Positions 6,011-27,258 of a stretch of 32,000 nt of DNA are shown here, in pieces (position 1 is the first letter of the stretch; every line of letters starts with the position of its first letter). Source of the DNA: Candidatus Iainarchaeum sp. (GTDB lineage Archaea; Iainarchaeota; Iainarchaeia; Iainarchaeales; 0-14-0-20-30-16). Below the pieces are notes generated by a model. The model ran no database searches. It was not told the origin of the DNA and saw only the letters and a program-made list of their open reading frames with translations. The stretch lies in contig JAQTTP010000006.1 of NCBI GenBank assembly GCA_028710695.1, positions 22,635 through 54,634 on the forward strand, in the 5' to 3' direction. A program made the translations under genes and the position numbers.

Positions 6011-6062
6011 GGGAACAAACTTTCCCCTTTGAGTTGGGGCCATGAAGGCCCGGATTTTTTCT
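6010..6062 (+). terminator. Hairpins plus T-tract after cdc48
   Basis: GGGGAA-caaact-TTCCCC (6010-6027), then GGGCC-atgaa-GGCCC (6037-6051), followed by the T-run ggattttttct. Confidence 0.5.
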
Positions 6063-6069
6063 CTAGTAA

Positions 6070-6084
6070 ACTATTTATATTAAT
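6070..6084 (+). promoter_or_regulatory. TATA-box-like element upstream of the pilin-like cluster
   Basis: ACTATTTATATTAAT starts 31 nt upstream of ATG 6101. The same ACTATTTA(T/A)(A/G) core recurs at 3634, 9872 and 15696 upstream of other + strand genes. No Shine-Dalgarno lies between it and the ATG, which suggests a leaderless or very short leader transcript. Confidence 0.45.
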
Positions 6085-6100
6085 TTATTCTATCTTATAA

Positions 6101-6679
6101 ATGCATAAAGTAGGACAAAAAATCAACAAATGGCGTAATCTCCATTCCTTGAAATCTCAGAAAGGTCAGGAAAGTATTGTATTTGAAGTTCTTATTGCAG
6201 TTATACTAATGACTTTTGTTTTTGTAATTGGGGGGTATGCAATGAAATCCCTAAACGAAACAAAATGCTCAAAAGAAATAGACTTGTCTATGAGCCAACT
6301 TGCGAGCGCAATAGAAAAAGCAGGAGCAACAAGTATTGGTACATATTACTACAAATTTTCGCCATCTTCTTGTTTTAGAAATAAAGAAACAAGTTATGAA
6401 CTAAAATCTGAAAGTGCAACTTTGTGTTCATCTTATTGTCCTGGAACTAATTATTGTTACCTGCTGAAATATCAAAATCAACAAGATCCAGTTAGTCCTC
6501 TTAGGTATAAATGCGTAAATATTTCGAAATACGTTGGATTAAATAATACTGGAATTTGTTCTGCACAAGGAGATTATGATGTAATGCAAGTTAACCCAAC
6601 TATTTTCCACCAGGGGGATTATTTGTTTGAATCAAAATCTTTGACAGTTCCATCAATTTGTATTTATTATAAACAATAA
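6101..6679 (+). CDS. Secreted/anchored Cys-rich protein with a class III (type IV pilin-like) signal-peptide-like N-terminus
   Basis: Basic leader MHKVGQKINKWRNLHSLKSQKG, then QESIVFEVLIAVILMTFVFVIGGYAM ([KR]G followed by Q-x-S, an acidic residue and a >20-aa hydrophobic helix). There are 8 Cys in the C-terminal domain. It is the first gene of a same-strand cluster. Confidence 0.7.
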   Translation: MHKVGQKINKWRNLHSLKSQKGQESIVFEVLIAVILMTFVFVIGGYAMKSLNETKCSKEIDLSMSQLASAIEKAGATSIGTYYYKFSPSSCFRNKETSYELKSESATLCSSYCPGTNYCYLLKYQNQQDPVSPLRYKCVNISKYVGLNNTGICSAQGDYDVMQVNPTIFHQGDYLFESKSLTVPSICIYYKQ

Positions 6680-6701
6680 GTGATGCCATCGCCGTGATTT
6701 T

Positions 6702-7328
6702 ATGATTGAGTTTATAATTTCCAAAATAGGTATATTGCTTTTTGCAGTGGCCGTGGCATCAGTGTTGATATTTTTTTCTTTAGGAATGAAAGATATTTTT
6801 GTTGCAGAGCAAGGCAGGGAAATTGCATCAACAATTATTAAGCAAGCAAAAGGTTTGTCGGAAACAGAGGCTTTGTGTACATCATTGAGGCTTAACTTGC
6901 CAAGATATATTGATATTTATGGGTCTACAGAAACATTTTCTTTGTCTGCATTGAATTATTTTTTTAAGATTTCAAAAGTTGATATTGGAAACGGCCAGAA
7001 TTCTGTTGTATTTGGAATTTACAAAAAAAATGGAAAAAAAGTTGGAAAACTTTTTGCAGTTGATAGTTTTAATACCAACTCTCAAATAGATTTTATTGGA
7101 ACTCCTGTGCCTGATGTTGACAAACCAGGTGAGACTTTAACTTGGGATCCGACCAACTCTTTGAGTAATGTAGTTTATGTTGTAAAAACAGTAATAAATG
7201 GTGAAGAAATAATCCATCTTGTTAAATGTGGGTATGACAAAAAAAGTGCAAACCCATATTCAAGTTGTTATTCTGCATTTGAAAATCTAAATATACCGGG
7301 GGTTTATTGTGTTCCAAAAGAAGATTAA
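6702..7328 (+). CDS. Membrane-anchored/secreted protein of the pilin-like cluster
   Basis: The N-terminus is itself a hydrophobic helix with an early Glu (MIEFIISKIGILLFAVAVASVLIFF). An in-frame TGA at 6681-6683 excludes a longer leader. There are 4 Cys in the ectodomain. The 3' end overlaps the next gene by 20 nt. Confidence 0.65.
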   Translation: MIEFIISKIGILLFAVAVASVLIFFSLGMKDIFVAEQGREIASTIIKQAKGLSETEALCTSLRLNLPRYIDIYGSTETFSLSALNYFFKISKVDIGNGQNSVVFGIYKKNGKKVGKLFAVDSFNTNSQIDFIGTPVPDVDKPGETLTWDPTNSLSNVVYVVKTVINGEEIIHLVKCGYDKKSANPYSSCYSAFENLNIPGVYCVPKED

Positions 7329-7923
7329 AAAGCAAAGTAGTAAGCCCCAAAGAAAAAAGGGCTTTATAGGAGCAATTGGTGATGATCTGCCAAGCTTGGT
7401 GCCAATATTTTTCTCTTTATTGATTTTTTTTGGAACTCTTTCATTTGTGTTTGTTACTCTTGGTGACAGAAATGCATATCTAGAAAAATATTTTGAGTCA
7501 ATATCTGTTTCAAAAGAAATATTGGGAAGTAGTTTTTATTCTGGATATACAGATTTTGATATGAGAGTTAAAGGGGTAAACACAACAGAGAAATATGCTG
7601 TTGGATTAATTTATAATCCAGAACTTTTAGGAAACAATATTTTTGATAAAGATTATTTTATTCAAAGTTTTGATAATCTTGGTATAGAAGAATTCCAGAT
7701 TCCAATAGATGATGTTGATTTTTTTTGTACTGTTGATGACAGTATTTGTAATTCTAATTCTGACAAAAATTATTTTGTATTTTCTAACGACCCAGATTTT
7801 GAAAATTCAATAGAACTGGACATTATTTTTAAAAACAACCAACCTCTAACCTATCTTTACCCAGTTACTTTGTCAACAAGTAAAGGGGTATTTGGGGTAT
7901 ATCTATATTTAATTGTGTGGTAA
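7309..7923 (+). CDS. Pilin-like cluster protein 3
   Basis: GTG start inside the previous gene. Basic leader MFQKKIKKQSSKPQRKKG, then FIGAIGDDLPSLVPIFFSLLIFFGTLSFVFVTL. There are 2 Cys (FFCTVDDSIC). Confidence 0.6.
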   Translation: MFQKKIKKQSSKPQRKKGFIGAIGDDLPSLVPIFFSLLIFFGTLSFVFVTLGDRNAYLEKYFESISVSKEILGSSFYSGYTDFDMRVKGVNTTEKYAVGLIYNPELLGNNIFDKDYFIQSFDNLGIEEFQIPIDDVDFFCTVDDSICNSNSDKNYFVFSNDPDFENSIELDIIFKNNQPLTYLYPVTLSTSKGVFGVYLYLIVW

Positions 7924-7925
7924 AT

Positions 7926-8690
7926 ATGAAGTCGAGAAAAATGAATCAGAGGGGCCAAGCAGCAGTTACTGATGCCTTATTTTTCTTGACTATAGTGGCA
8001 GTTGTTAGTGTACTGATGTTTACAAATGCAATGGGCTATGGAAAGAATCTAATTGATAGTAGTGTTGAGTATTACGAAAATACTTACATAATTTCTGCAT
8101 TAAAAACTTTGTATGCAGTAAGTAGTCCATTAGAATTAGATAAATATAGTGTTTTTGAAAGCAACTATAATGATACTTTGTTTACAATGTTAAAAAAAGA
8201 TTATTATCTTGACACAGTTTTGTCAAATGAAATGAAAATAAAAGTAATGGAATCTTTAAAAGAAATAATGAAACCAATAAACAAAAACAAAAATTATCTT
8301 TTCTATATTTATAACCCCAAAAATCAAGCAGGAGTTGGAGAGATTGTTCTTGCTGGATTTGTAATAACTCAAGAAGAGAGTGATGAAAAAATAACTTATA
8401 TTTGTGGAAAATCTTTAGACCCACAAATAAATAATATCTCTTTAGATGATATTTCATATTACCTTTCAAGGCACTTATTAGGGCAGAGATTTGCAGAAGG
8501 AAGAATGAGTTTATTAGAAAAACAAGGTGCGGATTCAACTCTTGTTATAGTAAATACAGGGCTTCTTGTTTGGACTGCAACCCCTGACATAGATAAATAT
8601 GGTGACTTTGTAGATCCCGGAACAGAATTTTTGAAAACAAACTGTTGTGTTTATACTCCTGGAACTTTATCTTGTCAGGTGAATCCGTAA
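7926..8690 (+). CDS. Pilin-like cluster protein 4 (class III signal-peptide-like)
   Basis: ATG 7926 lies 2 nt after the upstream TAA. MKSRKMNQRG, then QAAVTDALFFLTIVAVVSVLMF. There are 4 Cys, including the C-terminal NCCVYTPGTLSCQ. The GTG at 7917 in the ORF track is an alternative start. Confidence 0.65.
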   Translation: MKSRKMNQRGQAAVTDALFFLTIVAVVSVLMFTNAMGYGKNLIDSSVEYYENTYIISALKTLYAVSSPLELDKYSVFESNYNDTLFTMLKKDYYLDTVLSNEMKIKVMESLKEIMKPINKNKNYLFYIYNPKNQAGVGEIVLAGFVITQEESDEKITYICGKSLDPQINNISLDDISYYLSRHLLGQRFAEGRMSLLEKQGADSTLVIVNTGLLVWTATPDIDKYGDFVDPGTEFLKTNCCVYTPGTLSCQVNP

Positions 8691-8756: not shown

Positions 8757-9836
8757 TTATTTTTTGTCTGATTCTTTTTTCTCTTCCTTCTTTTTTGGTG
8801 GCTCCAAATCCAAATTTAGATTTAGATCTAAATCGCCTAAATCATTATCAGAAATCTTTTTGTCTAAATTAAAATTAGGTAAATCCATGTTTAGATCAAA
8901 TGGGTTTGTTTCTTCTTTCTTTTCTTCCTTTTTAGTGTCCTTTTCTGCTGGCTTGTCTTCTCCAGTGCCTTGTATTTTCTTGATTTCTTCATCTCTTGTA
9001 AGCTGAGTAAAAATATTATCTACAATTTGGTTTATTTCTCCTCTTTGGTTTGGCTCTCTGTTGTGTCTATCTCTGAACCGTTCTACTTCGACTTCTGTTA
9101 TTTTTTCGATTTCTTCCTTTGGCTTATTCAAATCAGTTTTCTCTTTTACTTGGCTGTAAATTACATCTATAATATTATCACGTAATTCTCTTGGAGTTTC
9201 TAGTTCTTCATCAGTATTTGGTTTGCCTTTTAATTCTTTAAGCCTTTCTCTGTAATGCCTTGAGCTTGGATCTGTTTCAGTGGCTTGGCTTTGTTCTTTG
9301 TCTTGGGGTTCACCAGGCCTATAAAATCTTCGTAATCTTCTTGGTATTTCAGAAACATCTTTATCTTTGTAGTTTTGTGGATTTTCGATAACTTTATCTG
9401 GTTCTACAGTCTTTTTTTCTTCCTGTTCGGCAAGTTTTATATTTTCTTCTTGTAATTTGCTTAATTCCTCTCCCAAATTTTCTTCAGGAGGCGCAAGCTG
9501 TATCGAGTTTTTTAATTGGCTCATAAGTTTGTCAACTTCACTAAAACTAGAATCTACTGTTGGTTCTGGGGCTTTAGTGGGTGCCAAATCCTTGCTAGTA
9601 AGAGTCAAATCCTTTCCTGATTCTTCTTTGTTTTGGTTTACTTTGTCCTTTGATTTAGATTCATTTTTTATTTCTTGTTTTTTTCCGCCTTTGCCATATA
9701 GCTCATCTATAACATCTCTTGCGATTTTTCTGGAATAACCTTCTGCCATAACCGCCTGAATGACTTCGTCTGTAGAATAGATGTTTTTGTAAGTTTGTAG
9801 AAGCTTAACTAAATTCTCAACTTCCTTTGAAGCCAT
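8757..9836 (-). CDS. Acidic, E/K-rich, largely disordered protein with a UBA-like N-terminal helical module and a C-terminal D-L-N repeat tail
   Basis: N-terminus: MASKEVENLVKLLQTYKNIYSTDEVIQAVMAEGYSRKIARDVIDELYG (three-helix pattern with an xEGY loop, as in UBA-type domains). About 280 aa of charged low-complexity sequence follows. The tail is FDLNMDLPNFNLDKK...LGDLDLNLNLDLEPPKKKEEKKESDKK. A TATA-like CTATATATAAATAA sits at 9852-9865 just upstream. Confidence 0.7.
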   Translation of the reverse strand: MASKEVENLVKLLQTYKNIYSTDEVIQAVMAEGYSRKIARDVIDELYGKGGKKQEIKNESKSKDKVNQNKEESGKDLTLTSKDLAPTKAPEPTVDSSFSEVDKLMSQLKNSIQLAPPEENLGEELSKLQEENIKLAEQEEKKTVEPDKVIENPQNYKDKDVSEIPRRLRRFYRPGEPQDKEQSQATETDPSSRHYRERLKELKGKPNTDEELETPRELRDNIIDVIYSQVKEKTDLNKPKEEIEKITEVEVERFRDRHNREPNQRGEINQIVDNIFTQLTRDEEIKKIQGTGEDKPAEKDTKKEEKKEETNPFDLNMDLPNFNLDKKISDNDLGDLDLNLNLDLEPPKKKEEKKESDKK

Positions 9837-9851
9837 AACAACACCTGCGAA

Positions 9852-9886
9852 CTATATATAAATAATAGTTAACTATTTAAAGAATA
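9852..9886. promoter_or_regulatory. Divergent promoter region (two TATA-like boxes)
   Basis: The 64-73 nt divergent gap holds CTATATATAAATAA (9852-9865, serving the minus gene starting at 9836) and ACTATTTAAAGAATA (9872-9886, serving the plus gene at 9901/9910). Confidence 0.4.
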
Positions 9887-9909
9887 TTTGTGTTTTTATA
9901 TTGATATAT

Positions 9910-10404
9910 ATGGAAATTACTTTTATAGGCATTCTGTACTCAATTTTGTACTGGGCTTGTTTTTCCGCCGTATTATTTTTTTTAATACTGCTTTTTGGGC
10001 ATTTTTATAAGGCTTTTGACGAAAAGTTGAAAATAAAAGATATTTTCAAGTATTTTTTGTTTACCTTGATCATATCCTACATAGTTTTGATATTGGCTTA
10101 TTTCCTTCCTGCGGCATTTGGGGTAAAACTTGAGTTTATTGCATTTTATACTACTTGGTACATGTACCTGTATGTTGTAATTGTAATTTTGCTGAAGCTT
10201 TTGCTTTATGCATTGGTACTATCAGTAATTCTTCAACCAGTAATTTTACTTGGGATTTTCCTTTATAGATACTTTGTTGAAAAAAATTCTAACGAGTTAT
10301 TGTCAAAATTTTATGTTTCAGTGATAATATCATTTGTGATTAGTTTGATATTGTATATCTTCCCTTGGATTCTGGGCGGAATGATTGCAATGGTGTATTT
10401 TTAG
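9910..10404 (+). CDS. Small polytopic membrane protein (about 5 TM), unknown function
   Basis: Almost entirely hydrophobic helices (ILYSILYWACFSAVLFFLILLF, FLFTLIISYIVLILAYFL, YMYLYVVIVILLKLLLYALVLSVIL, VISFVISLILYIFPWILGGMIAMVYF). Its TAG stop (10402-10404) overlaps the GGTGAT RBS of the next gene. TTG 9901 is an alternative start. Confidence 0.65.
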   Translation: MEITFIGILYSILYWACFSAVLFFLILLFGHFYKAFDEKLKIKDIFKYFLFTLIISYIVLILAYFLPAAFGVKLEFIAFYTTWYMYLYVVIVILLKLLLYALVLSVILQPVILLGIFLYRYFVEKNSNELLSKFYVSVIISFVISLILYIFPWILGGMIAMVYF

Positions 10405-10412
10405 GTGATTTG

Positions 10413-13400
10413 ATGGACTACAAACAAATATTCATGTACTTTGTTATTTTGAATATCTTTTTTTCTGCAATTGCTTTCTCTTATGTTCCGCCATCAGATT
10501 ATATGGGGCAGAACTCTTGTAAAACTGAAAGGCTAAGCCCTGAGGAAATAAATATTCTATGGGATGAATATTTGAGAACTGGCTTTACCCCAAATCAAAT
10601 AATTTCGGGGACTCCTGAAGAATTAAAAAATTCTGAAAAAACAGTTGAAAAAAAAGATTTTAATAAAGATGCGACTTTTACATCTATAGTTGATGATAAA
10701 GCAATAACTGCAGATGTGAGGACAGATCAAAAAATCCCTTATAACTCCTATATATTTAACAAAGTTATTGATGGAGACTATGCTTATGGTGTATTCCTAA
10801 ATGATTCTTTGAGAATTGGGCGATGTAAAGATGGTACAATTGGTTGTGCAGTTACTTCTGATAATAATGGGCTATATCTTAGAAATTCAGATGGCGCAAT
10901 TAAAACTTTTACTGAAGGTGTAAAATCTTTTTTTACAGGGGATGAAATAAAACAAAAAGACGCATATGGTGCCGGAGTAGTTAATCAAGAAGAAATAAAA
11001 GATAAAGTGGATTTAAGTCAAGCAGATGCTCAACAAGATATTAATGTTGTGAAATTTACTCACGAGCTTCAAGAAAAGCCAATGAGCAGTTTTTTAGTTG
11101 ATGATTTTTCATCAGAATTTATGATGCTGTGTAATAATCAAGATTCGGACAGCAGATGTAGAGTTTTGTTGTATTCTTTTTTTGATAAAAGATATAATGC
11201 CTATTATTCAGGCAGTCTAATATCTATTGCTGGTGGCCCAATTGCTTGGGGTGCAGTAAGCAAAGTATTTGGTGGTTTTGCATCATTCAAATATGGTGCG
11301 ATGGTAACAAAAGCAGTAAAAAAAGTTACAGATCCAGCAAAGCAATTATTGAAAGATACCTGGTATAAATTAATTGCAAAAGATTTCGGATATTTTTCAA
11401 AAAATGTAGGGGACACAGTGCTTAAAGCAACACAAAAAGGAGGCATTGGTGGTAGCCTGAAAGTTTTAGGGGATAATGCTTATGAAATTGTTCCTGCTAA
11501 ACTTGTTGCAGCAATTCAAAAAGATATGGTTCCAGGTTTGACTACTGCCCAAGCAAAGGAAGCCATTGGGGATGTAGTAGTTGCAAGAGCATCAGCAGCA
11601 GATTATGGACGAGGATTTTTAGAATCTGTCTCTGGAGAGTCTGATGTTTTTATTAAAAGAGCAGCTGCTATTGAGGCGGCAGATAAAGCACCAGTATTGC
11701 TTGGTGCACAAATGAATGATACTTTTTTGAATGAAAATTTTGCAGGATGGGTTGTAGATACTGCGGGTGGATCTGTTGCAGCAATGAAACCAATAACAAA
11801 ATTTGATATTGCCCCAAAATTTTTAAAGGGAGAAATAGATCCAAGCAAAATTTATAAACTTGCGGCAGGTGGAACAGCAGCAGAAGGTGTTGCACTTTCA
11901 GATTTAAAGAACTTTTTGAAAAGTAATCCTTCAGAAGAATACCTTGTTGAAATTGCTGGGACTTCAGTTCCCCTAAATGCCTCAACTGTAGATGCAGTAA
12001 AAGATGCGGCAGCAAAAGAGGGTATTGGAAGCCTTAGTATACTCACCGCAAGCAGGACCCCCATCGATTTTGGTAAATTTGGCGGCTATGAAGGGTTTAA
12101 ACAGAAATTTGCAAAAGACTACTATGATTTTGTAAAATACAAATACACTACTGCTGCAAATAATTATGATACAATTATGAACACTTTGCAAGGCGCAAAA
12201 GCAATGCCTACAAGAAATGCAAATGCAATGAACTTCTTTATGAAATTGTGGGCTGGGAAAGGAAGTGCAATTGGTGGCCTTGTAAGGCTTGAAGCTATTC
12301 CAACAATGTATTGGATGGCAAAAACAGGAGAGTTTGGAGATACTTTTAAAGCATATATGATTAAAGAGCAAGATCTGACAACAATAAAAACATACACTGG
12401 CGCAGATAGCTTGTATAACAGTGCATATATGGATATTTTTTCTAGAGAAGGAAGCAATAATGGAGATATGTTTTCTAAAGTTATTGACTATATAGTGTTT
12501 ATTGACAACATTGGATTATTGTCTAATGAAATGGAACAAAGCATAAAGTCTTTCTTTAGTCACCAGTTTAGAGACGAGCCCGAAGATTTAGTATTTTATA
12601 ATGAAGCACTAAAATGTGGTAAAGGTGCTTGTACTATATCTCTAAATAAACAAGCAGCAAAAGAAAAAATAGAAAACACAGATGTTGTTTCAGGAAAAGA
12701 TGTTGATATAATAAATGATAAAATACATGTGAACACTCAATCATTGCAAGGAACAAAAAATTATGTTGTTGAATTCCCAGACCCAGTTCCATCTGATGAC
12801 CCAGACCCAGGATATACTTTGAGTGCATTCGTGCATAGAATGAATATTGTTGGAAAAGATGGTGAAATAAATTTGGCATCAGCACTAGCACAAAAAGAAG
12901 ATTGTGTAAGTAAAGCAAAAGGCCTAACTATTGTTGGTATTCCATTTGGTAGCATGTTTGCATCTGATGTTGATCCATCTAAATTTGCAATACCTTTGGG
13001 AATAGTTGATAACTCAATTGGTTTAGCTCTTACTGGAATTCCTGGATTGGCATTGAGTGTAGTATCGTCTATACTAATAATGGAACAAGTTCAAGAACAA
13101 GTTGGAAATTGTGTAGATATTGTTGATGGATACTATGTTACTGACTCACTGATTCCTTACCAAGACATGAATGATTCTTTAATGTCTAAGATTGGCGGTG
13201 TGGCATCTAAAGGAGAAAAAGAAACAGAGAAATCTCTTCTGGAAGGAACACCTCTTGATAAAATCGCAACTACAATAAAAGACCAATTTAATAAAATAAT
13301 AAGCAATAAAACACATGAAGCAATACAGATAAATGTTGAAACAAAAGGAAAAACTAATGGATCTGTTTATGCGGAAGATATCTTCCTGATTTGGGAAGGT

Positions 13401-14747
13401 GGAAATGCAAGTCAGATAAATCTAAAGTATGATGATAAATCGTACACAACTTTAAAAGATAAAGACGGGAAAACAGCAATAATAGATAATGAGAAAGGGA
13501 TTTTTGAAATAAATGGAAAGCAAATTAATAATCCGGATCTTGTAAGATTAATGAAAAGAAATAATAGGGGCCCGTTCTATAGTATGCCTGTTGCAGTAAC
13601 TGTATTTTCAGCAAACAGTGTTGGAAATATGTTTGAAGCACACACAAATGGTGATTTTTTAGTAAAGGATCCAAGCATACTTGATTGTATTAGAGCTGGA
13701 GTGTTTGAGCAAACTGGAATGACTATGATGGGCAACTCTTTGTATGAACATATGGGCCCAGTTACAGAAATCTTGGTTGAATCTGGAACAATAATTAGAC
13801 CAAGTTTGTATGGTTCTGAAAACCAATTCTCAATGGAAGGAACAACTATTGGAAGAATTCCTATGCCTAATTCAACACTTACTGTTAAAGGTGATAGAAC
13901 TGTAGTAATTAAGAACGCACAAAAGTCTTACGAATTAGATGGTGTTGTTGGTATTGCCTTTGAAAAAGGATCAATTGTTTACAAAGCGCAAACAAATGAA
14001 TTTATTATGTGGATAGAAAACATGGCACAAATTGATGGAAAATATATTTCTAATTTGATGTCAAATCACAACCCCCAAATAAATGAAGAAACTGGTTGTG
14101 AAGAAGATGCATTTGATTTGAAATTAGCTCCAATTCCCGGAGATGTAACTGCGGAAGAAGAAGTTGGAAAGATGAATATTGCTTTAGAAAAAGCAGGCCC
14201 ATTCCAATACTTCCAGACTCCAAAATATAATATAATTTTCTATTCAAAAATGGAAAGTGGGGTTTGTAAAAAATATATGAAAGTTGTAGACAGAGAAACT
14301 GGAAGAGTAATAAGTGATGCAGAAGTAACAAGCGTTACAAAAACTCCAGATGGTTATAAAGTTACAACTGCGGATGGAAAAACACATGATATCGGATTTG
14401 AAGTTGCAAATGGGAAGCCGATATTGTCTTATAATGGAGACAAGCAGCCTTTGCTAATTGCACAAGGAAAAGATGGTGCATTCTATTACGATCCAAGTAC
14501 AGGAAAATGGTATGTTGATAATGCACAAGTATTGCCAATAGATGATGACTTTAAGTTACATGGGTCTGCAACACAAGGAAATAATACATATCCGTCTGAT
14601 AACCCAATAAGTGGGGCTTTAAGTCCATCAGATAGTTCAAAATCAAGTTGGGATATTCCATTAACTGGAAGTCTATTAGCTTCAGGATTAGTAATGTTAG
14701 TAAGTAGTATGTTTGTATATTTGTACTTTAAGAGGGAGGATGAGTAA
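10413..14747 (+). CDS. Orphan 1,444-aa secreted/membrane protein with an N-terminal signal peptide and a C-terminal IPLTG-TM-KREDE sorting-signal-like anchor
   Basis: ATG 10413 is preceded by AGGTGAT (10403-10409), and the ORF-track start at 10365 overlaps the upstream gene. The signal peptide is MDYKQIFMYFVILNIFFSAIAFS. Internal Gly/Ala-rich hydrophobic segments include LISIAGGPIAWGAVSKVFGGFA and IGLALTGIPGLALSVVSSILIM. The Ser-rich stalk SGALSPSDSSKSS is followed by WDIPLTG-SLLASGLVMLVSSMFVYLYF-KREDE. I recognise no enzymatic motif. Confidence 0.8.
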   Translation: MDYKQIFMYFVILNIFFSAIAFSYVPPSDYMGQNSCKTERLSPEEINILWDEYLRTGFTPNQIISGTPEELKNSEKTVEKKDFNKDATFTSIVDDKAITADVRTDQKIPYNSYIFNKVIDGDYAYGVFLNDSLRIGRCKDGTIGCAVTSDNNGLYLRNSDGAIKTFTEGVKSFFTGDEIKQKDAYGAGVVNQEEIKDKVDLSQADAQQDINVVKFTHELQEKPMSSFLVDDFSSEFMMLCNNQDSDSRCRVLLYSFFDKRYNAYYSGSLISIAGGPIAWGAVSKVFGGFASFKYGAMVTKAVKKVTDPAKQLLKDTWYKLIAKDFGYFSKNVGDTVLKATQKGGIGGSLKVLGDNAYEIVPAKLVAAIQKDMVPGLTTAQAKEAIGDVVVARASAADYGRGFLESVSGESDVFIKRAAAIEAADKAPVLLGAQMNDTFLNENFAGWVVDTAGGSVAAMKPITKFDIAPKFLKGEIDPSKIYKLAAGGTAAEGVALSDLKNFLKSNPSEEYLVEIAGTSVPLNASTVDAVKDAAAKEGIGSLSILTASRTPIDFGKFGGYEGFKQKFAKDYYDFVKYKYTTAANNYDTIMNTLQGAKAMPTRNANAMNFFMKLWAGKGSAIGGLVRLEAIPTMYWMAKTGEFGDTFKAYMIKEQDLTTIKTYTGADSLYNSAYMDIFSREGSNNGDMFSKVIDYIVFIDNIGLLSNEMEQSIKSFFSHQFRDEPEDLVFYNEALKCGKGACTISLNKQAAKEKIENTDVVSGKDVDIINDKIHVNTQSLQGTKNYVVEFPDPVPSDDPDPGYTLSAFVHRMNIVGKDGEINLASALAQKEDCVSKAKGLTIVGIPFGSMFASDVDPSKFAIPLGIVDNSIGLALTGIPGLALSVVSSILIMEQVQEQVGNCVDIVDGYYVTDSLIPYQDMNDSLMSKIGGVASKGEKETEKSLLEGTPLDKIATTIKDQFNKIISNKTHEAIQINVETKGKTNGSVYAEDIFLIWEGGNASQINLKYDDKSYTTLKDKDGKTAIIDNEKGIFEINGKQINNPDLVRLMKRNNRGPFYSMPVAVTVFSANSVGNMFEAHTNGDFLVKDPSILDCIRAGVFEQTGMTMMGNSLYEHMGPVTEILVESGTIIRPSLYGSENQFSMEGTTIGRIPMPNSTLTVKGDRTVVIKNAQKSYELDGVVGIAFEKGSIVYKAQTNEFIMWIENMAQIDGKYISNLMSNHNPQINEETGCEEDAFDLKLAPIPGDVTAEEEVGKMNIALEKAGPFQYFQTPKYNIIFYSKMESGVCKKYMKVVDRETGRVISDAEVTSVTKTPDGYKVTTADGKTHDIGFEVANGKPILSYNGDKQPLLIAQGKDGAFYYDPSTGKWYVDNAQVLPIDDDFKLHGSATQGNNTYPSDNPISGALSPSDSSKSSWDIPLTGSLLASGLVMLVSSMFVYLYFKREDE
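14655..14744 (+). other. C-terminal tripartite sorting-signal-like segment (IPLTG motif, 20-aa hydrophobic helix, charged tail)
   Basis: Codons att cca tta act gga (14655-14669) give IPLTG. They are followed by SLLASGLVMLVSSMFVYLYF and KREDE-stop. Confidence 0.55.
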
Positions 14748-14748
14748 A

Positions 14749-14874
14749 ATGGCAGTAGTTAGAAAACCTTTACCAAAAGCACCTGGTTTTGCAATAAAGA
14801 AAACAATAACTGGTCCAAGAGGAACTGGTAGAAAAGGCAATGTTATTCAATTAGCAAAAGCAAAAAGAAGATAA
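14749..14874 (+). CDS. 41-aa highly basic peptide, translationally coupled to the giant gene
   Basis: Manual translation: MAVVRKPLPKAPGFAIKKTITGPRGTGRKGNVIQLAKAKRR*. The ATG lies 1 nt after the upstream TAA, with GGAGGATGA at 14735-14743 acting as a Shine-Dalgarno inside the upstream gene's end. It is below the ORF-track cutoff. Confidence 0.45.
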   Translation: MAVVRKPLPKAPGFAIKKTITGPRGTGRKGNVIQLAKAKRR

Positions 14875-14910
14875 GTCATAAAAAAGGACTTATTCTTCTT
14901 CTTTTTTATT
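14873..14910 (+). terminator. Short hairpin plus T-tract between convergent genes
   Basis: AAGTC-(9 nt)-GACTT (14873-14891), then ttcttcttcttttttatt. Confidence 0.4.
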
Positions 14911-14927
14911 TGTCTATTAAAAAATAC

Positions 14928-15617
14928 CTAAATTATATTGTGTCCTGCATACTCTTTTTCTTTCATATCCTTTAATTGAGTATTTACTATTCCACTTAGT
15001 TTCTTTGATTCCGCAAGCAATGGCTTGTTGTCTATGTTTAAATTGTACATTTTATTTAGAAGCCCAATTGCTTTTGCAGCTGCATCGTAATTTTTTGTTT
15101 GCAAAAACGGAACTAAAATTAGAAAGATTGGATAATCTTTTTCAAGAATAAAGAATTGTGCACCAATTCCTGCTGTGATTCCTTCTTTTATTTTTTGAAT
15201 ATTGTATTTTTCTAAATAAGTTAAATTCTTTTTGTTGTTTGCAACTCCTAAAATTGTTTCATTATTGTCTATTATTCCACCAATTGAAAGTATTCTGTCC
15301 ATTTTTGATTTCTTTGCCCAATGTAGGACAATATTACAATAGCTTTTCAAATCCTCTTTTTGAATTATTTGGTCAGAAATTATACAAATAAGTTTGTGCT
15401 TGTGGGAAACATAAGCCCTTATTGGGTGCTGTGGAATCCCGTTCTCAATTTTTACTATTGGTGTTGTATTGTCGTGTTCGAAATGGCCTAGATAGTCCAT
15501 TTTTAGGTTTTCAATTAAGTATTTTGTAGTAATAGAACTAATTAAATCTGCAGAAGGAAACCCCTCTATTAGAGTGTAACCCTTGTAATTTTTGTTAGAC
15601 TTAAAGAATAGACCCAT
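14928..15617 (-). CDS. PAC2-family proteasome assembly chaperone-like protein
   Basis: The N-terminal pattern YTLIEGFPSADLISSITTKYLIENLKMDYLGHFE....PIVKIENG....PIRAY matches the remembered PAC2/COG1938 pattern (xLIEGxPGxGxVGxxAxxYLIxxL...). There is no C-terminal HbYX motif (it ends ...AGHNII). Confidence 0.6.
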   Translation of the reverse strand: MGLFFKSNKNYKGYTLIEGFPSADLISSITTKYLIENLKMDYLGHFEHDNTTPIVKIENGIPQHPIRAYVSHKHKLICIISDQIIQKEDLKSYCNIVLHWAKKSKMDRILSIGGIIDNNETILGVANNKKNLTYLEKYNIQKIKEGITAGIGAQFFILEKDYPIFLILVPFLQTKNYDAAAKAIGLLNKMYNLNIDNKPLLAESKKLSGIVNTQLKDMKEKEYAGHNII

Positions 15618-15640
15618 AGCAATTCACCATTAGTTTTACG

Positions 15641-15705
15641 ATAGATTATAGCAATTACCTATATAAATATATTCCTATAAATAGGATATATAATAACTAT
15701 TTATG
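15641..15705. promoter_or_regulatory. Divergent A/T-rich promoter region
   Basis: CCTATATAAATATATT (15658-15673) and ACTATTTATG (15696-15705, 28 nt before the rpl15e ATG) lie in the 106-nt divergent gap. Confidence 0.4.
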
Positions 15706-15723
15706 AATTAAGAGTGTGATAGC

Positions 15724-16323
15724 ATGTCATTTGCAAAACAATTCAAGAAAGTGTCAGTTAAGATAAGAAAAAAGGATAAAGATGCAGATTATGATTACAA
15801 AAAGTTGTATTCTGATAAGATGATTGCTTTAAGAAAGAAAAAAGCAAGCGTTGTTAAATTGGCTAAACCAACAAACCCAGTAAGAGCAAGAGAACTTGGC
15901 TACAAGGCAAAACAAGGAGTAGTTGTGGCTATGGTAAAAATAAGAAAAGGAACTGGTGCCTTTTCAAGGGTAAATAAAGGAAGAAAGCCAAAGAGAACAG
16001 GATACTTAAAATTAACTAGGAAAGTTTCAATCCAGAAGATGGCTGAGCAAAGAGCAGGTACTAAGTTTAGTAACTGTGAAGTTTTGAATAGCTATTGGGT
16101 TGGAGAAGATGGTAAGGATAAGTACTACGAAGTTATTTTACTAGAAAGATCTCACCCTGTAATCTTAGCAGACAAGAACTATGTGGGCGTAGTTAACCAG
16201 AAGAGAAGAGTATTTAGAGGATTGACTTCTGCAGGAAAGAAAGGAAGAGGATTAGCAAACAAAGGAAAAGGAACTGAGAAGAATAGACCATCTATAAGAG
16301 CAAAAGGAAGAAAAGCAAAGTAA
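15724..16323 (+). CDS. rpl15e: 50S ribosomal protein L15e
   Basis: PTNPVRARELGYKAKQGVVVAMVKIRKG, RKPKR...LTRK, AEQRAGTKFSNCEVLNSYWVGEDGKDKYYEVILL are typical eL15 blocks. Confidence 0.93.
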   Translation: MSFAKQFKKVSVKIRKKDKDADYDYKKLYSDKMIALRKKKASVVKLAKPTNPVRARELGYKAKQGVVVAMVKIRKGTGAFSRVNKGRKPKRTGYLKLTRKVSIQKMAEQRAGTKFSNCEVLNSYWVGEDGKDKYYEVILLERSHPVILADKNYVGVVNQKRRVFRGLTSAGKKGRGLANKGKGTEKNRPSIRAKGRKAK

Positions 16324-16350
16324 AGCTTTTTCTTTTTTCTATTTTTTTAT

Positions 16351-17193
16351 TTATTTTTTCATTTCTCTTTTTCTAAATTCTTGTCCTAATTCTCTGCCCA
16401 TTTTTGAGAGATAGGCTTTGTACTCTTTTTCTAGCCAGAATTTTATCTTTGGATTGTAATCAGATTCTCTTGCGGTCACGATTTCTGGTTCTGCATCCAT
16501 TGGCCCACTTGTTCTTTTTAGAACCCCCCCTCGTCCAGCATAACCTTTGGAATTTTCAGACCTTTTTGGTTTGCTAAGCCTTGTGGTTGAATTAAAATCT
16601 TCTTCTTGGATATTATGGTATGTTGCATTTGGTAAACCTAGCCTTTGTAGCTCTTGGCCAATTGCATCTATTGTATTTTTGCTTACAATAAGATCTAATA
16701 CAAAAAATCTTGGCTTTTTAATTCTTTTAACAACTTCTGGAATTCTTGCGATTGCAGTAGAACTGGGGATACAAGTGCCTGTTTGGCGTTCAAGTGTAGA
16801 AATGTATAATACTGGGCCCAATCTATACCTTTTTAGTTCTCTATAAACATCAGGAAATGCTTCCACAAGGGCAGTATGAAATAAGTGCCCTGCAATTCTC
16901 ATGGATGTATCTGGGAGCAATATAATTGGTGTTTGGCCTTGTGCAATAGAGCTTTTTGCAGCAGCAAGCAACTCATTTGTGGATTTTTGGATGTACTGCA
17001 AATCTTTTTTTTCATAGATTTTCCGTCGTAAATTTTTTAATCTGTCAGCGGATGTTGATTCGCCGTGTTTTTCAGTTAATTCTATATATCTTCTTGATTT
17101 CCATCTATCTTCTGGACAAGTAGAGTTTTCTTCTAATTTTCTGCGTTTTTCTAGAAGTCCGCGAATAAATGTAGTTGCTCTTTTTAGTACCAT
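16351..17193 (-). CDS. Hypothetical 280-aa protein, possibly a degenerate phosphoribosyltransferase-like fold
   Basis: I place the start at Met71 of the track ORF (MVLKRATTF..., cat at 17191-17193). The longer 350-aa version overlaps rnp3 and encodes junk-like sequence. A PRPP-loop-like string PRFFVLDLIVSKNTIDAIGQEL is present. The function call is weak. Confidence 0.55.
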   Translation of the reverse strand: MVLKRATTFIRGLLEKRRKLEENSTCPEDRWKSRRYIELTEKHGESTSADRLKNLRRKIYEKKDLQYIQKSTNELLAAAKSSIAQGQTPIILLPDTSMRIAGHLFHTALVEAFPDVYRELKRYRLGPVLYISTLERQTGTCIPSSTAIARIPEVVKRIKKPRFFVLDLIVSKNTIDAIGQELQRLGLPNATYHNIQEEDFNSTTRLSKPKRSENSKGYAGRGGVLKRTSGPMDAEPEIVTARESDYNPKIKFWLEKEYKAYLSKMGRELGQEFRKREMKK

Positions 17194-17248
17194 ATAAGAA
17201 ATAATAACTTTACTAAAGAATAAAAGCTTTCGGGTTGTTAGTTTTATT

Positions 17249-17803
17249 ATGATTTTTGATTTTATTGGCTCTGAACTCAAGGGCAAGCTTGGCAAGGAAA
17301 AGGAAAGCCAAACTATTTTTCTTTCAGGCATATATTCTAAAGAAATGAATAATAAAAAACACTGTCTTGTTGTAGATGTTTCTAAGAATAAGAATGAATT
17401 CAAAAGAACAGGAAATTATGGGTGCTATGTTGGGGCCAAAGTTGGATCTCTAAAAGATGTGTTCTTTTGTTTGGATAAAAAATTAGATTTTATAATAAAT
17501 CCTTTTAACTATAAAACAAAATTCTTTGATAATTCTACAATAACTGTTATGAAGCAAAGAAATTTGTTTCCATTGATTTTCTTGGATGAATATCTTGAGT
17601 TGAGCAAAGGCCAACAAATTGGATTTTTGAAAAATGCTTTTTTGCTTGTGGATCTTGCAAAAAAACAATCAATACCTGTGCTTATTGCCTCTGGCGCAAA
17701 TGAGCCTTGGCAAGTAATTTATAATAATGAATTTTTGTATCCTTTATTTAATATAAAAATAGAACAAGCAAATAATTTTTTTAATATTTTAGAAAGAAAG
17801 TGA
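17249..17803 (+). CDS. rnp3: RNase P protein component 3 (Rpp30 family)
   Basis: MIFDFI start, FIINPF, an IPVLIASGANEPWQV block (the SGA motif of Rpp30 TIM-barrel proteins), and position immediately upstream of Pop5. Confidence 0.7.
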   Translation: MIFDFIGSELKGKLGKEKESQTIFLSGIYSKEMNNKKHCLVVDVSKNKNEFKRTGNYGCYVGAKVGSLKDVFFCLDKKLDFIINPFNYKTKFFDNSTITVMKQRNLFPLIFLDEYLELSKGQQIGFLKNAFLLVDLAKKQSIPVLIASGANEPWQVIYNNEFLYPLFNIKIEQANNFFNILERK

Positions 17804-17823
17804 ATTTCTGAATTGGTGATACT

Positions 17824-18162
17824 ATGAAGAGAAAATTGAATCCCTTGCCATTGTCTTTGAGAGAAAAGAAAAGATATCTTTTATTTTCTATGAATAAAGT
17901 AGAAAATTTTGAAAACATAATTAATAGTTATGTGCGGTCTTTTTTTGGAACTTATTTTATGGCACAAATGGAATTCAGGATTTTGAAGAGTAAAGAGAAA
18001 AAAAAGAGAATTTATTTTGTTGTAAAAGCATCTAGAGATGAATTTGAAAAAATAATTGCTGCTTTGGAATTATTTAAAAAATCAAATGAAATTATGTTGG
18101 ACATAAAGTTAGAAAAAGTTAGTGGAACAATAAAGACAATAAATGAAATCTTGGAGGAGTAA
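17824..18162 (+). CDS. rnp2: RNase P protein component 2 (Pop5 family)
   Basis: PLPLSLREKKRYLLF near the N-terminus and KVSGTIKTI near the C-terminus match archaeal Pop5 signatures (LPPTLRxKxRYIxF ... VSGTIK). Confidence 0.85.
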   Translation: MKRKLNPLPLSLREKKRYLLFSMNKVENFENIINSYVRSFFGTYFMAQMEFRILKSKEKKKRIYFVVKASRDEFEKIIAALELFKKSNEIMLDIKLEKVSGTIKTINEILEE

Positions 18163-18163
18163 A

Positions 18164-18958
18164 ATGATCCAAAGAAAGAAAGTTGGGCTTGCATTAGGTG
18201 GTGGAGGCTCAAAAGGATTTGCACATATTGGTGTCTTGCAAGTTTTTGAAGAAGAAGGCATTCCAGTAGATTATATTTGTGGAACTTCTATTGGATCTTT
18301 AATTGGTGGCCATTATTCTTTGTATAAAGATATAGATCATCTAAAATCTGATGCCTTTTCGTTTTTGAAAGAAAATGATTTAGACTTATTTAGTTTGTTA
18401 AAACCTGGATATGAGAAAACACTAAAAAATTTACAGTTCTTTTTAGAATCTGTATATAGGGATCATAGGTTTTCTGACACAAAAACCCCTTTTTCTTGTA
18501 CTGCAGTGAATATAGAAAATGGTGCTTTATTAGATATCGATGACGGAAGACTTATTGATGCAATTTTTGCAAGTATGAGTATTCCAGGTCTGTTTCCTGC
18601 AAGATTTTTTTGGGGTTCTTGGCTAGTTGATGGCGGGGTACTAAATAATTTGCCAGTAGATATTGTTGCAAAAAAAGGTTATGATGTTGTTATAGGCTGC
18701 GATCTAGGGGACATTGAAGCTCTAAAACAAATAGAGGCAAAACCAACAAGAATAGATGCTTTGAAAAGGTCATTTATTATCATGTCTGATGATTTGACAG
18801 CAAGAATAAAAAAATCAGTTCCAAATGCAATAATAATAAATCCAAAAATAGTTGTTTCAACACTGAGATTTGATTATGCTTTGTCTAAAAAACAAATTGT
18901 TGAGGGCGAAAAATCAGCAAGAGCAAAAATAGATGAAATTAAGAAGAGGCTAAAGTGA
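18164..18958 (+). CDS. Patatin-like phospholipase
   Basis: Oxyanion/Gly-rich loop GLALGGGGSKGFAHIGV, nucleophile elbow GTSIGSLIGG (GxSxG), and catalytic Asp motif LVDGGVLNNLP. ATG 18164 is preceded by GGAGGAG (18153-18159) and lies 1 nt after the rnp2 stop. Confidence 0.88.
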   Translation: MIQRKKVGLALGGGGSKGFAHIGVLQVFEEEGIPVDYICGTSIGSLIGGHYSLYKDIDHLKSDAFSFLKENDLDLFSLLKPGYEKTLKNLQFFLESVYRDHRFSDTKTPFSCTAVNIENGALLDIDDGRLIDAIFASMSIPGLFPARFFWGSWLVDGGVLNNLPVDIVAKKGYDVVIGCDLGDIEALKQIEAKPTRIDALKRSFIIMSDDLTARIKKSVPNAIIINPKIVVSTLRFDYALSKKQIVEGEKSARAKIDEIKKRLK

Positions 18959-19515
18959 TTCTTTTGCAGAAAAAACAAAACATTTTTGAGAAGGTAAGGC
19001 ACTATGCACATAACAAAGGCAAAAATAAAAAGTCATTAACTATTTTTTCAAAGATATTTGTATTTTTAATCTCATTTTTGTTTGCATTTTTAATTCTATA
19101 TCTTATTTTTGAATACTTTAACTTATACTATTATGTTTCTTTGTTTTTTTCTTACCTAGTTTACAATTTTTTCAGTTCGAGCTTTCAAAATATTACAATG
19201 ATTGGAACAACAGTAGACTTTTCTACTTTCCAAATTAATATAACTGATGTTTGTTCTGGAGCTTATGAATTAATTGTATTTATTTCTTTGATATTTGCTT
19301 GCTTTGAAATTAAGTTGTGGAAAAGGGCAGTAGGAATTTTAACATACCTTCTGGTGTTTGTAATTTTTAATTTGGTAAGAATGATAATAGTAATTTATTC
19401 TCTGGGGATTTTTGATTTGATGTCAGTAGATATCTTACACACAGTTTTATTCAAATTTGGATTTTGGATATTTACATTATTGTTCTTTGTATACTTTTTG
19501 ATTTTTGCAGAATAA
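18955..19515 (+). CDS. Minimal (186-aa) exosortase/archaeosortase-family transpeptidase
   Basis: Polytopic membrane protein with INITDVCSGAYELIVF (Cys100, tgt 19252-19254), FNLVRMIIV (the N-x-x-R motif, Arg142, aga 19378-19380) and DILHTVLFKFG (His162, cac 19438-19440). These are the Cys/Arg/His triad context of the exosortase/archaeosortase family. The GTG start overlaps the patatin stop (GTGA). Confidence 0.72.
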   Translation: MILLQKKQNIFEKVRHYAHNKGKNKKSLTIFSKIFVFLISFLFAFLILYLIFEYFNLYYYVSLFFSYLVYNFFSSSFQNITMIGTTVDFSTFQINITDVCSGAYELIVFISLIFACFEIKLWKRAVGILTYLLVFVIFNLVRMIIVIYSLGIFDLMSVDILHTVLFKFGFWIFTLLFFVYFLIFAE

Positions 19516-26109: not shown

Positions 26110-27258
26110 TTACTTAAATAATGAAACAAACCAATCAATTATTATTTGGAAAAAACCCCTATCTTCTTTTTCTTGCGGTTCTGCTTCTTCTTGCTCTGGT
26201 ATGGATGGTACGGACTTTCCTGTCATCAATGTTTCGCATTTATCTTTGCCGATGAATTCTCCGTCTATAAAACAATCTGCAGGGGGTCCATTGTCTGAAG
26301 GTTTTTCTTTACTTGTTGGTTCATTGCTGACTAGTGCTTTACAATCATCTTCGCCAATAAAATTTCCATTAATTATACATTCTTGAGGTGGTCCATCATC
26401 GGATTTATTATAATTGGGCTGGCCCTTAACTTCTGTCTGTACTTCTTTGCCTATTTTACTTTCATATTTTTGGGCATAATCAACTAAGGTTTTCAAAGAT
26501 TCCTTGGAACATCCGCCTCCGCCTTGCATCCCTGATTCTGTTACTGTTTCATTCATGTCGGGGTGAGTTTTTGTAAATTGTTCGCAATTAGTCGTATTGG
26601 TATTATAAATAGAAACTCTTTTCAGCTTTTTGAGGTTATCAAGACAGGACAAATCTCCCGTAATGTCCGGGTTTCCCGGATACTCATCTGCTATACCTAG
26701 CTCTTCAAGATTGGTTAACTTACTGAATACACAGATATCACCACTGACAAAAGTGCCGCTAACATATATTGCCTTTAAGTTTGGCATATTGGCAAAAACA
26801 GATATATCTCCGGAAATATTTGTATGTGTCATTGCAAAAGTCTCTAACTTAGTCAAATCTTTCAAGCAAGAAATATCTCCTGTTATTTTTGGGTCAAAGG
26901 CAAATTTCAAGCTTCTTAAATTTGTGGCTCCTGCTAGCGAACAGATATCACCATAAACATCAGGATTGGAATAAAGACTAAAAACATCCAGATTTACTAA
27001 ATTTTTCAAATTAGCAATATCTCCAGTAATTGTTCTGTCGGTTGCATCCATGTACTGCAAGCAAGTCAAATCCTTAAGTTGGTTTACATCTTTGAGTAGA
27101 TCTATATTATTAATTCGGATAAAATTCTCATCTTGATAAGCCATCTGGTAATCTTTATACACGGAAGTTGTAATATCTCCAGATTGGCATGGCGCAATGG
27201 CGTAAATAAAACTTACTGACAAAACTACCAATAATAAAAATAAAATTATTTTTCTCAT
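26110..27258 (-). CDS. Secreted leucine-rich-repeat protein with GDI(S/C/A)-type repeats of about 24 aa and a twin Cys-motif C-terminal region
   Basis: The signal peptide is MRKIILFLLLVVLSVSFIYAIAPC. The repeats are TGDIANLKNLVNLDVFSL.., GDICSLAGATNLRSLKFA.., GDISCLKDLTKLETFAM.., GDISVFANMPNLKAIYV.., GDICVFSKLTNLEELGI.. and GDLSCLDNLKKLKRVSI... The C-terminal motifs are DDGPPQECIINGNFIGEDDCKALV and DNGPPADCFIDGEFIGKDKCETLM. The protein ends in the hydrophobic tail RGFFQIIIDWFVSLFK. Confidence 0.8.
   Translation of the reverse strand: MRKIILFLLLVVLSVSFIYAIAPCQSGDITTSVYKDYQMAYQDENFIRINNIDLLKDVNQLKDLTCLQYMDATDRTITGDIANLKNLVNLDVFSLYSNPDVYGDICSLAGATNLRSLKFAFDPKITGDISCLKDLTKLETFAMTHTNISGDISVFANMPNLKAIYVSGTFVSGDICVFSKLTNLEELGIADEYPGNPDITGDLSCLDNLKKLKRVSIYNTNTTNCEQFTKTHPDMNETVTESGMQGGGGCSKESLKTLVDYAQKYESKIGKEVQTEVKGQPNYNKSDDGPPQECIINGNFIGEDDCKALVSNEPTSKEKPSDNGPPADCFIDGEFIGKDKCETLMTGKSVPSIPEQEEAEPQEKEDRGFFQIIIDWFVSLFK
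26593..27180 (-). repeat. Tandem LRR coding repeats (period about 72 nt)
   Basis: At least six consecutive units are seen in the translation. Each starts with GD(I/L)(A/S/C) and carries an L..L..L core. Confidence 0.7.

Follow-up and report, generated by a model that had tools for sequence, protein, structure and literature searches.

The closest described counterparts of the system analyzed here belong to the type IV pilus (T4P) loci of archaea, for which Makarova, Koonin & Albers (2016, PMC4858521) described PilY-like adhesins and large "S-layer-like" proteins with an anchor at the C-terminus. We have examined a stretch of 32,000 nucleotides from Candidatus Iainarchaeum sp. (positions 22,635 to 54,634 of contig JAQTTP010000006.1, assembly GCA_028710695.1; from here on, the window), in which the gene of a small polytopic membrane protein (mem) is followed by that of a protein of 1,444 amino acids (aa) (giant), close to four pilin-like genes (pil1 to pil4). 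The giant protein is present at NCBI with identical sequence as a "hypothetical protein" of Candidatus ainarchaeum sp. (PHH82_03520). The window is low-GC archaeal DNA (GC about 32%), and housekeeping genes are found at both sides of the system, CysRS, Ogg and a CDC48-type AAA ATPase upstream and PAC2, ribosomal protein L15e, RNase P subunits, S15 and S3Ae downstream. For comparison 24 related loci were fetched (L001 to L024). Our analysis leads us, with about even confidence, to read mem and giant as an accessory module of a type IV pilus-like apparatus of DPANN archaea, in which giant would be a cell-anchored adhesin or envelope element and mem its partner in the membrane.

The likeness to the S-layer-like proteins of archaeal T4P loci (PMC4858521) is considerable. 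In both cases a large protein with a signal peptide and a C-terminal transmembrane (TM) helix is encoded beside a secretion ATPase, a TadC-like protein and minor-pilin-like genes, multiple conserved cysteines are found in the components, and the functions are predicted from context. However, the giant family comes with a small polytopic partner to which it is strictly coupled and with a [FL]N[LI]PS[LV]PE motif of its own, it belongs to DPANN archaea (Iainarchaeota and Micrarchaeota-like) whereas the others come from Thermoproteales and Euryarchaeota, and it has no detectable homology to annotated families. With the PilY1/DUF2341 adhesins of bacterial type IVa pili, proposed also for methanococcal T4P (PMC4858521), giant shares the size of more than 1,000 aa, the non-pilin nature, the position beside four minor-pilin-like genes and a beta-rich C-terminal region. 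It differs in lacking a DUF2341, vWA or PilY1 domain and in having a conserved C-terminal anchor, and its propeller-type Foldseek matches, from a low-confidence model, are non-significant.

Two other systems are alike in the way a surface protein is held at the membrane. Archaeosortases cut C-terminal tripartite signals and attach a lipid, and their best-studied substrate is the S-layer glycoprotein of Haloferax (PMC6098224). Like these substrates, giant combines a Sec signal with a C-terminal tripartite signal, and an archaeosortase-family gene with the Cys/Arg/His residues is found nearby. However, its motif is neither PGF nor that of a modelled sorting domain, and the putative enzyme is short (about 186 aa) and ArtD/pacearchaeosortase-like. 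The SlaA/SlaB operon of Sulfolobales also pairs a very large exported protein with a smaller membrane-anchoring one, and the large subunits are similar in size. In contrast, giant carries its own anchor, mem has four to five TM helices and no ectodomain, and the gene order is reversed; neither the PDB search nor Foldseek, the latter with a low-confidence model, found sequence or fold similarity of giant to SlaA/SlaB. The giant family has no detectable homology to any of these systems, and two of its features are not described for them, the small polytopic protein that always accompanies it and a conserved C-terminal motif of its own.

The pair of mem and giant

The two genes are found on the forward strand with a spacing of 8 nt. 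The gene mem (9910..10404) goes from the ATG at 9910 to the TAG at 10402-10404, and this stop lies inside a Shine-Dalgarno (SD)-like AGGTGAT (10403..10409, forward strand) that ends 4 nt before the start of giant. The latter (10413..14747) goes from the ATG at 10413 to the TAA at 14745-14747 and codes for a signal peptide, a cysteine-rich ectodomain of about 1,390 aa and a C-terminal anchor. AGGTGAT is a perfect 7-nt complement of the 3' end of archaeal 16S rRNA. A preliminary description of this DNA, made from its letters and open reading frames (ORFs), had taken mem, giant and a following 41-aa ORF for a translationally coupled trio, with the stop of mem inside the ribosome-binding site (RBS) of giant. 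On rechecking, the coordinates and junctions of the three ORFs were all correct and the sequence agreed with the proposed RBS. The first two members of the trio have stayed together in our comparison, while the 41-aa peptide, without a counterpart in the 24 loci, has dropped out of it.

Homologues of giant were collected at first as four protein clusters and then, by a scan of species-representative genomes, in 16 loci, all of them in metagenome-assembled genomes (MAGs) of Iainarchaeota/Diapherotrites, among them the complete genome of Ca. Forterrea multitransposorum. Two of the fetched loci, L022 and L024, are much more distant, and L022 is Micrarchaeota-like. A search with a hidden Markov model (HMM) of mem detected a homologue directly upstream of giant and on the same strand in every locus with upstream DNA (18 of 18), in Iainarchaeota and Micrarchaeota-like genomes. 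The gap between both genes was between -4 and +31 nt in 15 of 17 loci; stop and start overlap (TGATG-type) in four of them (L004, L020, L017 and L011), and the TAGGTGA(T/C) junction, with the TAG within AGGTGA, is retained in L005 and L001. This association exceeds chance by far. By gene content and order, mem and giant are a conserved two-gene module of DPANN archaea, present in two phyla. The junction is that of a translationally coupled operon, and we infer the coupling itself from it. AT-rich TATA-like elements (TATATATAAATAA and TTTAAAG) are located at 9853-9889, about 25-55 nt before the ATG of mem at 9910, and no SD is found ahead of this ATG; for these two reasons the transcript of the pair may be leaderless.

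The mem protein has 164 aa and, by hydropathy, four to five hydrophobic helices, a topology read from its ORF and its homologues. The homologues of L022 and L024 are only 81-84 aa long, with two TM helices that match the C-terminal half of mem. When 16 orthologues were aligned, conservation was limited to F, K, Y..P and a C-terminal FPW; Cys, His, Ser, Asp or Glu residues conserved in the manner of a peptidase or transferase were missing. A sortase-like enzyme was rejected for mem on account of the missing catalytic-type residues. Neither mem nor 14 of its homologues matched Pfam or NCBIfam, and the PDB search with the mem profile gave only noise. Given that no catalytic-type residue is conserved, a structural role is more likely for mem than an enzymatic one, either in binding and positioning the anchor of giant or in helping its insertion.

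The pilus-like neighbourhood

All the genes of the fetched loci were clustered and the representatives annotated by Pfam. A common order became apparent, consisting of a T2SSE ATPase, a T2SSF-like protein of about 750 aa, one or two class-III pilins, pil1 to pil4, a divergently transcribed gene for a protein with a PRRLRRF motif, mem, giant, a variable slot and, on the opposite strand, PAC2. Past PAC2 there is often a second set, T2SSF-T2SSF-T2SSE, with T2SSF matches of 38 and 32 bits. The T2SSE-family ATPases of related loci matched with 118 and 61 bits, and their class-III pilins have textbook N-termini (for example ..NNKGQ/AFEAYQLLIAFII..). Genes of T2SSE and T2SSF were found within 10 kb of the pair in L004, L008, L009, L013, L014, L016, L017, L020 and L022. 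In L009 and L011 the ATPase, the T2SSF-like platform, a class-III pilin, mem and giant directly adjoin each other on a single strand. The link to a surface appendage that the preliminary description had proposed is strengthened, with T2SSE, T2SSF-like and class-III pilin genes flanking the pair in most lineages.

The four pilin-like genes, whose co-occurrence with mem and giant in other genomes had been proposed as a test, do co-occur with them. All four are on the forward strand. The product of pil1 (6101..6679) has a class-III-type N-terminus (..KGQ/ESIVFEVLIAVILMTF..), with orthologues in eight lineages and in L024; pil2 (6702..7328) has a hydrophobic helix right at the N-terminus, without a leader; pil3 (7309..7923) has the motif ..KKG/FIGAIGDDLPSLVPIFF.. 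and pil4 (7917..8690) the motif ..RGQ/AAVTDALFFLTIV... The motifs KGQ/ES.., KKG/FIG.. and RGQ/AAV.. of pil1, pil3 and pil4 are conserved in the orthologues, and so is ..KGQ/AF.. in the c7 genes of related loci. Upstream of the pair the order of the four genes is kept in L001/L007, L010, L012, L013, L014, L016, L018 and the distant L024, the last one detected by HMM with E values from 1e-17 to 6e-8.

Between pil4 and mem, on the reverse strand, is the gene of an acidic protein (8757..9836, 359 aa, pI 5.0) with the conserved PRRLRRF motif and an acidic DLDL tail, in which no hydrophobic segment was noted. It had been described as a divergent gene separating the pilin-like cluster from the pair, and it turns out to be a conserved member of the cluster itself. 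Orthologues are located between pil4 and mem in L001, L005, L013, L016, L018 and L019, and elsewhere in L017. Some of them end in a zinc-ribbon (L013 and L017). The protein belongs to no Pfam or NCBIfam family, and it may be a regulator or a scaffold.

The association also extends to the two distant loci. In L024 a T2SSF-like gene, a class-III pilin and pil1 to pil4 are found upstream of the 81-aa mem homologue and giant, and in L022 a divergent cluster of T2SSE, T2SSF, VWA and pilin-like genes abuts the pair, while the other neighbours are wholly different in both. That the association with the pil and T2SS genes persists in L022 and L024 despite the turnover of the flanks is what mainly favours a functional link with the pilus over merely inherited order. 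Two other large genes were seen in L022, one for a VWA-domain protein of 1,185 aa inside the pilus cluster (4042-7599, reverse strand) and another, behind the giant homologue, for a second and unrelated signal-peptide protein of 1,653 aa (14005-18966, forward strand).

The giant protein and its possible identities

An exhaustive profile search among 1.84 billion representative proteins retrieved 199 clusters (50% identity) at E<=1e-3 and 102 at E<=1e-30. About 100 members are full-length, with 1,430-1,730 aa, and collinear with the query; one distant member is annotated as Candidatus Micrarchaeota. Pfam and NCBIfam gave no match to the window protein or to seven distant members, and the PDB sequence searches with giant alone and with a 66-member profile gave only noise. 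The absence of a known family and of a catalytic motif, noted in the preliminary description, is upheld by the remote homology searches, and giant is, as far as profile comparison can tell, an orphan envelope protein without catalytic or known domains. IMG/VR contained no relatives of the family. A viral or mobile origin was rejected on this basis and on that of the core-genome context of the locus.

The Sec-type signal peptide (10413..10484, forward strand; aa 1-24, MDYKQIFMYFVILNIFFSAIAFSY; Kyte-Doolittle (KD) hydropathy 1.99) was borne out and is conserved family-wide. The orthologues have classical n-h-c signal peptides with A-x-A-type sites ending in AFA/Q, VHA/E or VFA/S, and the N-terminus of giant has no [KR]G/Q class-III motif such as would mark a type IV pilin leader. 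Ten invariant or near-invariant cysteines extend from residue 36 to residue 1285 across the whole ectodomain, the invariant ones being 138, 145, 735, 740, 831, 900, 1092, 1229 and 1285. Because they are spread along it, the region between the terminal hydrophobic segments is taken as extracytoplasmic, and the cysteines probably form disulfides. At the other end a C-terminal tripartite anchor (14649..14744, forward strand) consists of a WDIPLTG motif, a hydrophobic helix of 19 aa and a KREDE tail. Across the family the consensus reads [FL]N[LI]PS[LV]PE followed by a TM helix and a K/R-rich tail, WDIPLTG being the version of the window's sub-lineage. Among the 131 members with a C-terminal helix, 123 have the [LI]Pxx[P..] motif with a Pro that is 100% conserved, and the last 12 aa of these C-termini contain a mean of 3.6 K/R. 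What had been called a sorting-signal-like anchor has therefore proved to be strongly conserved, with the motif, TM helix and basic cluster of an archaeosortase or exosortase substrate. It belongs to none of the PGF-, PEF-, PIP-, VPXXXP- or PEP-CTERM classes, with nothing above noise when the C-termini of three family members were compared with the NCBIfam sorting-domain models at E<=10. On these features giant is a type I, C-terminally anchored surface protein.

Such a protein could also be the main S-layer protein of the cell, anchored by its C-terminal helix or by an archaeosortase-attached lipid, with mem as anchor or assembly partner and the pilus genes as inherited neighbours. We consider this rather unlikely, although it is the main rival reading and several properties of giant fit it well. 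There is one copy per locus, phylum-wide and in a core-genome position; the protein has a Sec signal, an acidic ectodomain (pI about 5 in the family) and a C-terminal tripartite signal like that of the Haloferax S-layer glycoprotein, the principal ArtA substrate (PMC6098224), and an archaeosortase-family gene is present in the window. S-layer-like genes are found in many archaeal T4P loci (PMC4858521). Also its size is near that of the large two-gene S-layer system of Sulfolobales, for which anchoring by SlaB is described (PMC6098224). However, an S-layer protein with merely inherited neighbours would hardly keep its link to the T4P genes through a complete turnover of the flanks, as in L022 and L024, or be operonic with them, as in L009 and L011. 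The composition of giant also argues against it. About half of the protein is predicted to be helical, neither Ig-like/beta-sandwich repeats nor internal repeats were detectable, N-glycosylation sequons are not enriched (9 found against about 10 expected), and neither sequence searches nor Foldseek, with a low-confidence model, gave a match to solved S-layer proteins.

The structural prediction was obtained with AlphaFold2 (AF2) on giant as two halves with a 4-sequence alignment (mean pLDDT of 47.9 and 39.5). Long helices are predicted for aa ~230-445 and ~553-716, beta strands for ~1000-1370, in agreement with the helical N-half and beta-rich C-half noticed at the beginning; confidence was moderate for aa ~1150-1370 (all beta) and ~390-585 only. 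The N-half had weak, non-significant Foldseek matches to IpaD, SipD, flagellin and Hbl, from which no conclusion was drawn, and the same applies to those of the C-half to the WD40, Kelch and clathrin propellers. Internal repeats or propeller blades were rejected, hhalign between blocks of the 66-member alignment giving at most 40% probability.

These propeller-type matches of the beta-rich C-terminal region (WD40, Kelch, clathrin terminal domain) bear on another reading, that giant is a PilY1-like adhesin of the pilus tip, carried out of the membrane by a complex that the four minor pilin-like proteins form. The gene arrangement speaks for it, since four minor-pilin-like genes beside a non-pilin protein of more than 1,000 aa mirror the bacterial fimU-pilVWXY1. 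It also mirrors the arrangement of the PilY-like DUF2341 proteins proposed for methanococcal T4P (PMC4858521). Yet the conserved TM anchor and basic tail would keep giant in its own membrane unless cleaved, Pfam detected no DUF2341, vWA or PilY1 domain in the window protein or in the seven distant members, no blade-like internal repeats were found, and the propeller matches themselves were non-significant (E >= 1e-3, prob <= 0.6, TM about 0.07) and came from a low-confidence model. A tip adhesin of this kind seems to us quite improbable.

The internal Gly-rich hydrophobic segments had been taken as possible TM or membrane-active elements, which the family does not support. One of them (12984..13091, forward strand; aa 858-893) has a KD of 2.05 and a central GIPG, and lies between the invariant Cys831 and Cys900. 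In the family its median KD is 1.39, and only 24% of 66 members reach 1.6, a value reached by none of the 66 in the segment of aa 270-292. A polytopic giant was rejected, with invariant cysteines at both sides of the segment and a hydrophobicity that is not conserved. Because of this lack of conservation giant would not insert into membranes through its internal segments, and aa 858-893 probably does not span the membrane but belongs to a core, as a buried or juxtaposed element. A membrane-perturbing or fusogenic giant, inserting these segments into a host membrane, is in consequence very improbable: the Cys-bracketed segment superficially resembles internal fusion loops and DPANN cells do form intimate host contacts (PMC11291902, PMC5498576), but 58 of the 66 members have no internal segment of KD >= 1.8, Foldseek with low-confidence models gave no fold likeness to viral proteins of BFVD or to PDB fusogens, and heptad or trimer evidence was not found.

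Anchoring, surroundings and significance of the pair

About 4 kb downstream of giant there is a gene with a GTG start (18955..19515, forward strand) for a small protein of the exosortase/archaeosortase family (186 aa; TIGR04178, 35.1 bits against a cutoff of 23). The Cys/Arg/His residues are conserved and it weakly resembles ArtD and pacearchaeosortase, far below the cutoffs of those subfamilies. Within 10 kb of giant, homologues were found in L001/L007 and L009 alone, the one of L009 being inside the pilus cluster. The [FL]N[LI]PS[LV]PE-type C-terminus was sought in all the proteins of the fetched loci and appeared only in members of the giant family. Because the motif of giant fits no modelled sorting domain and no other protein of these loci carries it, processing of the C-terminal signal of giant by the small archaeosortase is put forward here as a hypothesis only. 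A patatin-like phospholipase gene (18143-18958) precedes the archaeosortase and overlaps its start with the stop codon, and the same coupled pair is found in L001. The coupling of a phospholipase to what looks like a sortase-type lipid-anchoring enzyme is suggestive.

The accessory-module reading can be put as follows. The genes mem and giant would be co-transcribed and, given their tight junction, translationally coupled. Giant would be exported by Sec through its N-terminal signal peptide, the ectodomain of some 1,390 residues would fold outside the cell with about five disulfides, as the ten conserved cysteines suggest, and the protein would be tethered to the membrane of its own cell by the C-terminal motif, TM helix and basic tail. 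More speculatively, the small archaeosortase might cleave giant at [FL]N[LI]PS[LV]PE and anchor it to a lipid. The mem protein, as a chaperone or docking subunit, would most likely bind or position the membrane anchor of giant. The pair would cooperate with the T2SSE ATPase, the T2SSF-like platform, the class-III major pilins, the minor-pilin-like pil1 to pil4 and a cytoplasmic PRRLRRF protein, and giant would be a cell-anchored adhesin or an envelope collar of the apparatus, attaching to surfaces or host cells.

Several observations weigh against this. No pilin model of Pfam or NCBIfam matches any of the pilin-like proteins, pil1 to pil4 and the c7 genes included, for which the label of pilin comes from the N-terminal motifs and the context; this agrees with the published remark that DPANN T4P loci hold pilins unrecognisable by sequence (PMC6393860). 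The T2SSF-like protein of about 750 aa scored 17-23 bits in three independent orthologues, below the Pfam cutoff of 25.2. Neither T2SSE nor T2SSF is present in the 32-kb window or in the 10 kb upstream of it, and major-pilin genes are also absent from the window; the position of the ATPase and platform genes, upstream of pil1, is held there by CDC48, with PolD and others farther upstream. In the window the pil operon is transcribed separately from the pair, with the divergent acidic gene between them. The synteny of PAC2 is conserved too, and therefore part of the conservation of the neighbourhood is simple inheritance. The relation of the archaeosortase with giant consists of proximity in three lineages only. 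Finally, Foldseek found nothing significant for the giant models in PDB or BFVD, the models being of low confidence, and giant was left without an assigned fold.

The 41-aa basic ORF (14749..14874, forward strand; NCBI PHH82_03525, hypothetical) starts 1 nt past the TAA of giant, with GGAGGATGA just upstream. This apparent RBS falls within the codons for the C-terminal R-E-D-E of giant. No homologue follows giant in L005, where giant is 82% identical, nor in L001 or L004; phmmer and tblastn gave zero matches across the 24 fetched loci, and its protein cluster contains no other sequence. The possibility of a small ribosomal or DNA-binding protein of known type was discarded, as neither a Pfam or NCBIfam family nor any homologue was found. 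Because it has no homologues in relatives, a single-member cluster and an RBS within giant codons, we take it as a lineage-specific ORF, of uncertain reality and outside the system, rather than a coupled member.

The slot between giant and PAC2 is variable. It contains the 41-aa ORF in the window (14748-14927), an unrelated 25-aa ORF and a HEPN/MNT (HEPN/nucleotidyltransferase) pair in L005 (6992-8280), an unrelated 126-aa ORF in L001 (11468-11882), and a CTP-dependent riboflavin kinase of helix-turn-helix type in L004 (6003-7430), L009, L011, L017 and L020. The PAC2-family gene itself, proteasome-assembly-chaperone-like (14928-15617, reverse strand), is convergent and downstream of giant in 14 loci phylum-wide; its persistence is notable, and is probably inherited gene order. 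Elsewhere in the window a second giant ORF of more than 1,333 aa, running off the end (27999-32000), has CarboxypepD_reg, Big_1 and bMG3 domains and codes for another, unrelated surface protein. A CHASE2-adenylate/guanylate cyclase sensor (102-1229) and a leucine-rich-repeat protein (26110-27258, reverse strand) are both unusual in a small DPANN genome.

Most DPANN archaea have not been cultured, and many of them need physical contact with other cells. To our knowledge, few of the molecules behind this contact have been identified. That a DPANN genome codes for a large orphan surface protein close to pilin genes is in itself unsurprising. What the analysis adds is that one hypothetical giant protein becomes a defined family of about 200 sequence clusters, with an obligatory small partner in the membrane, a conserved sorting-type C-terminus and a T4P-like locus position in at least two DPANN phyla, and with it a candidate new sorting motif for the small archaeosortases of DPANN. 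A broader proposal, which we judge unlikely, would have mem, giant, the four minor-pilin-like proteins and the PRRLRRF protein form a DPANN-specific pilus-based organelle of attachment or host contact in Iainarchaeota and Micrarchaeota, with giant sorted through a new "[FL]NLPSLPE-CTERM" signal by a miniature archaeosortase. If this were true, it would provide a first conserved candidate, at the level of molecules, for the hold of these uncultured lineages on partners or surfaces. If giant were merely an S-layer protein, the finding would still name the cell-wall protein of Iainarchaeota, so far unknown. The module of mem and giant, conserved in two phyla, offers a definite candidate, open to testing, for the apparatus by which uncultured DPANN lineages attach.

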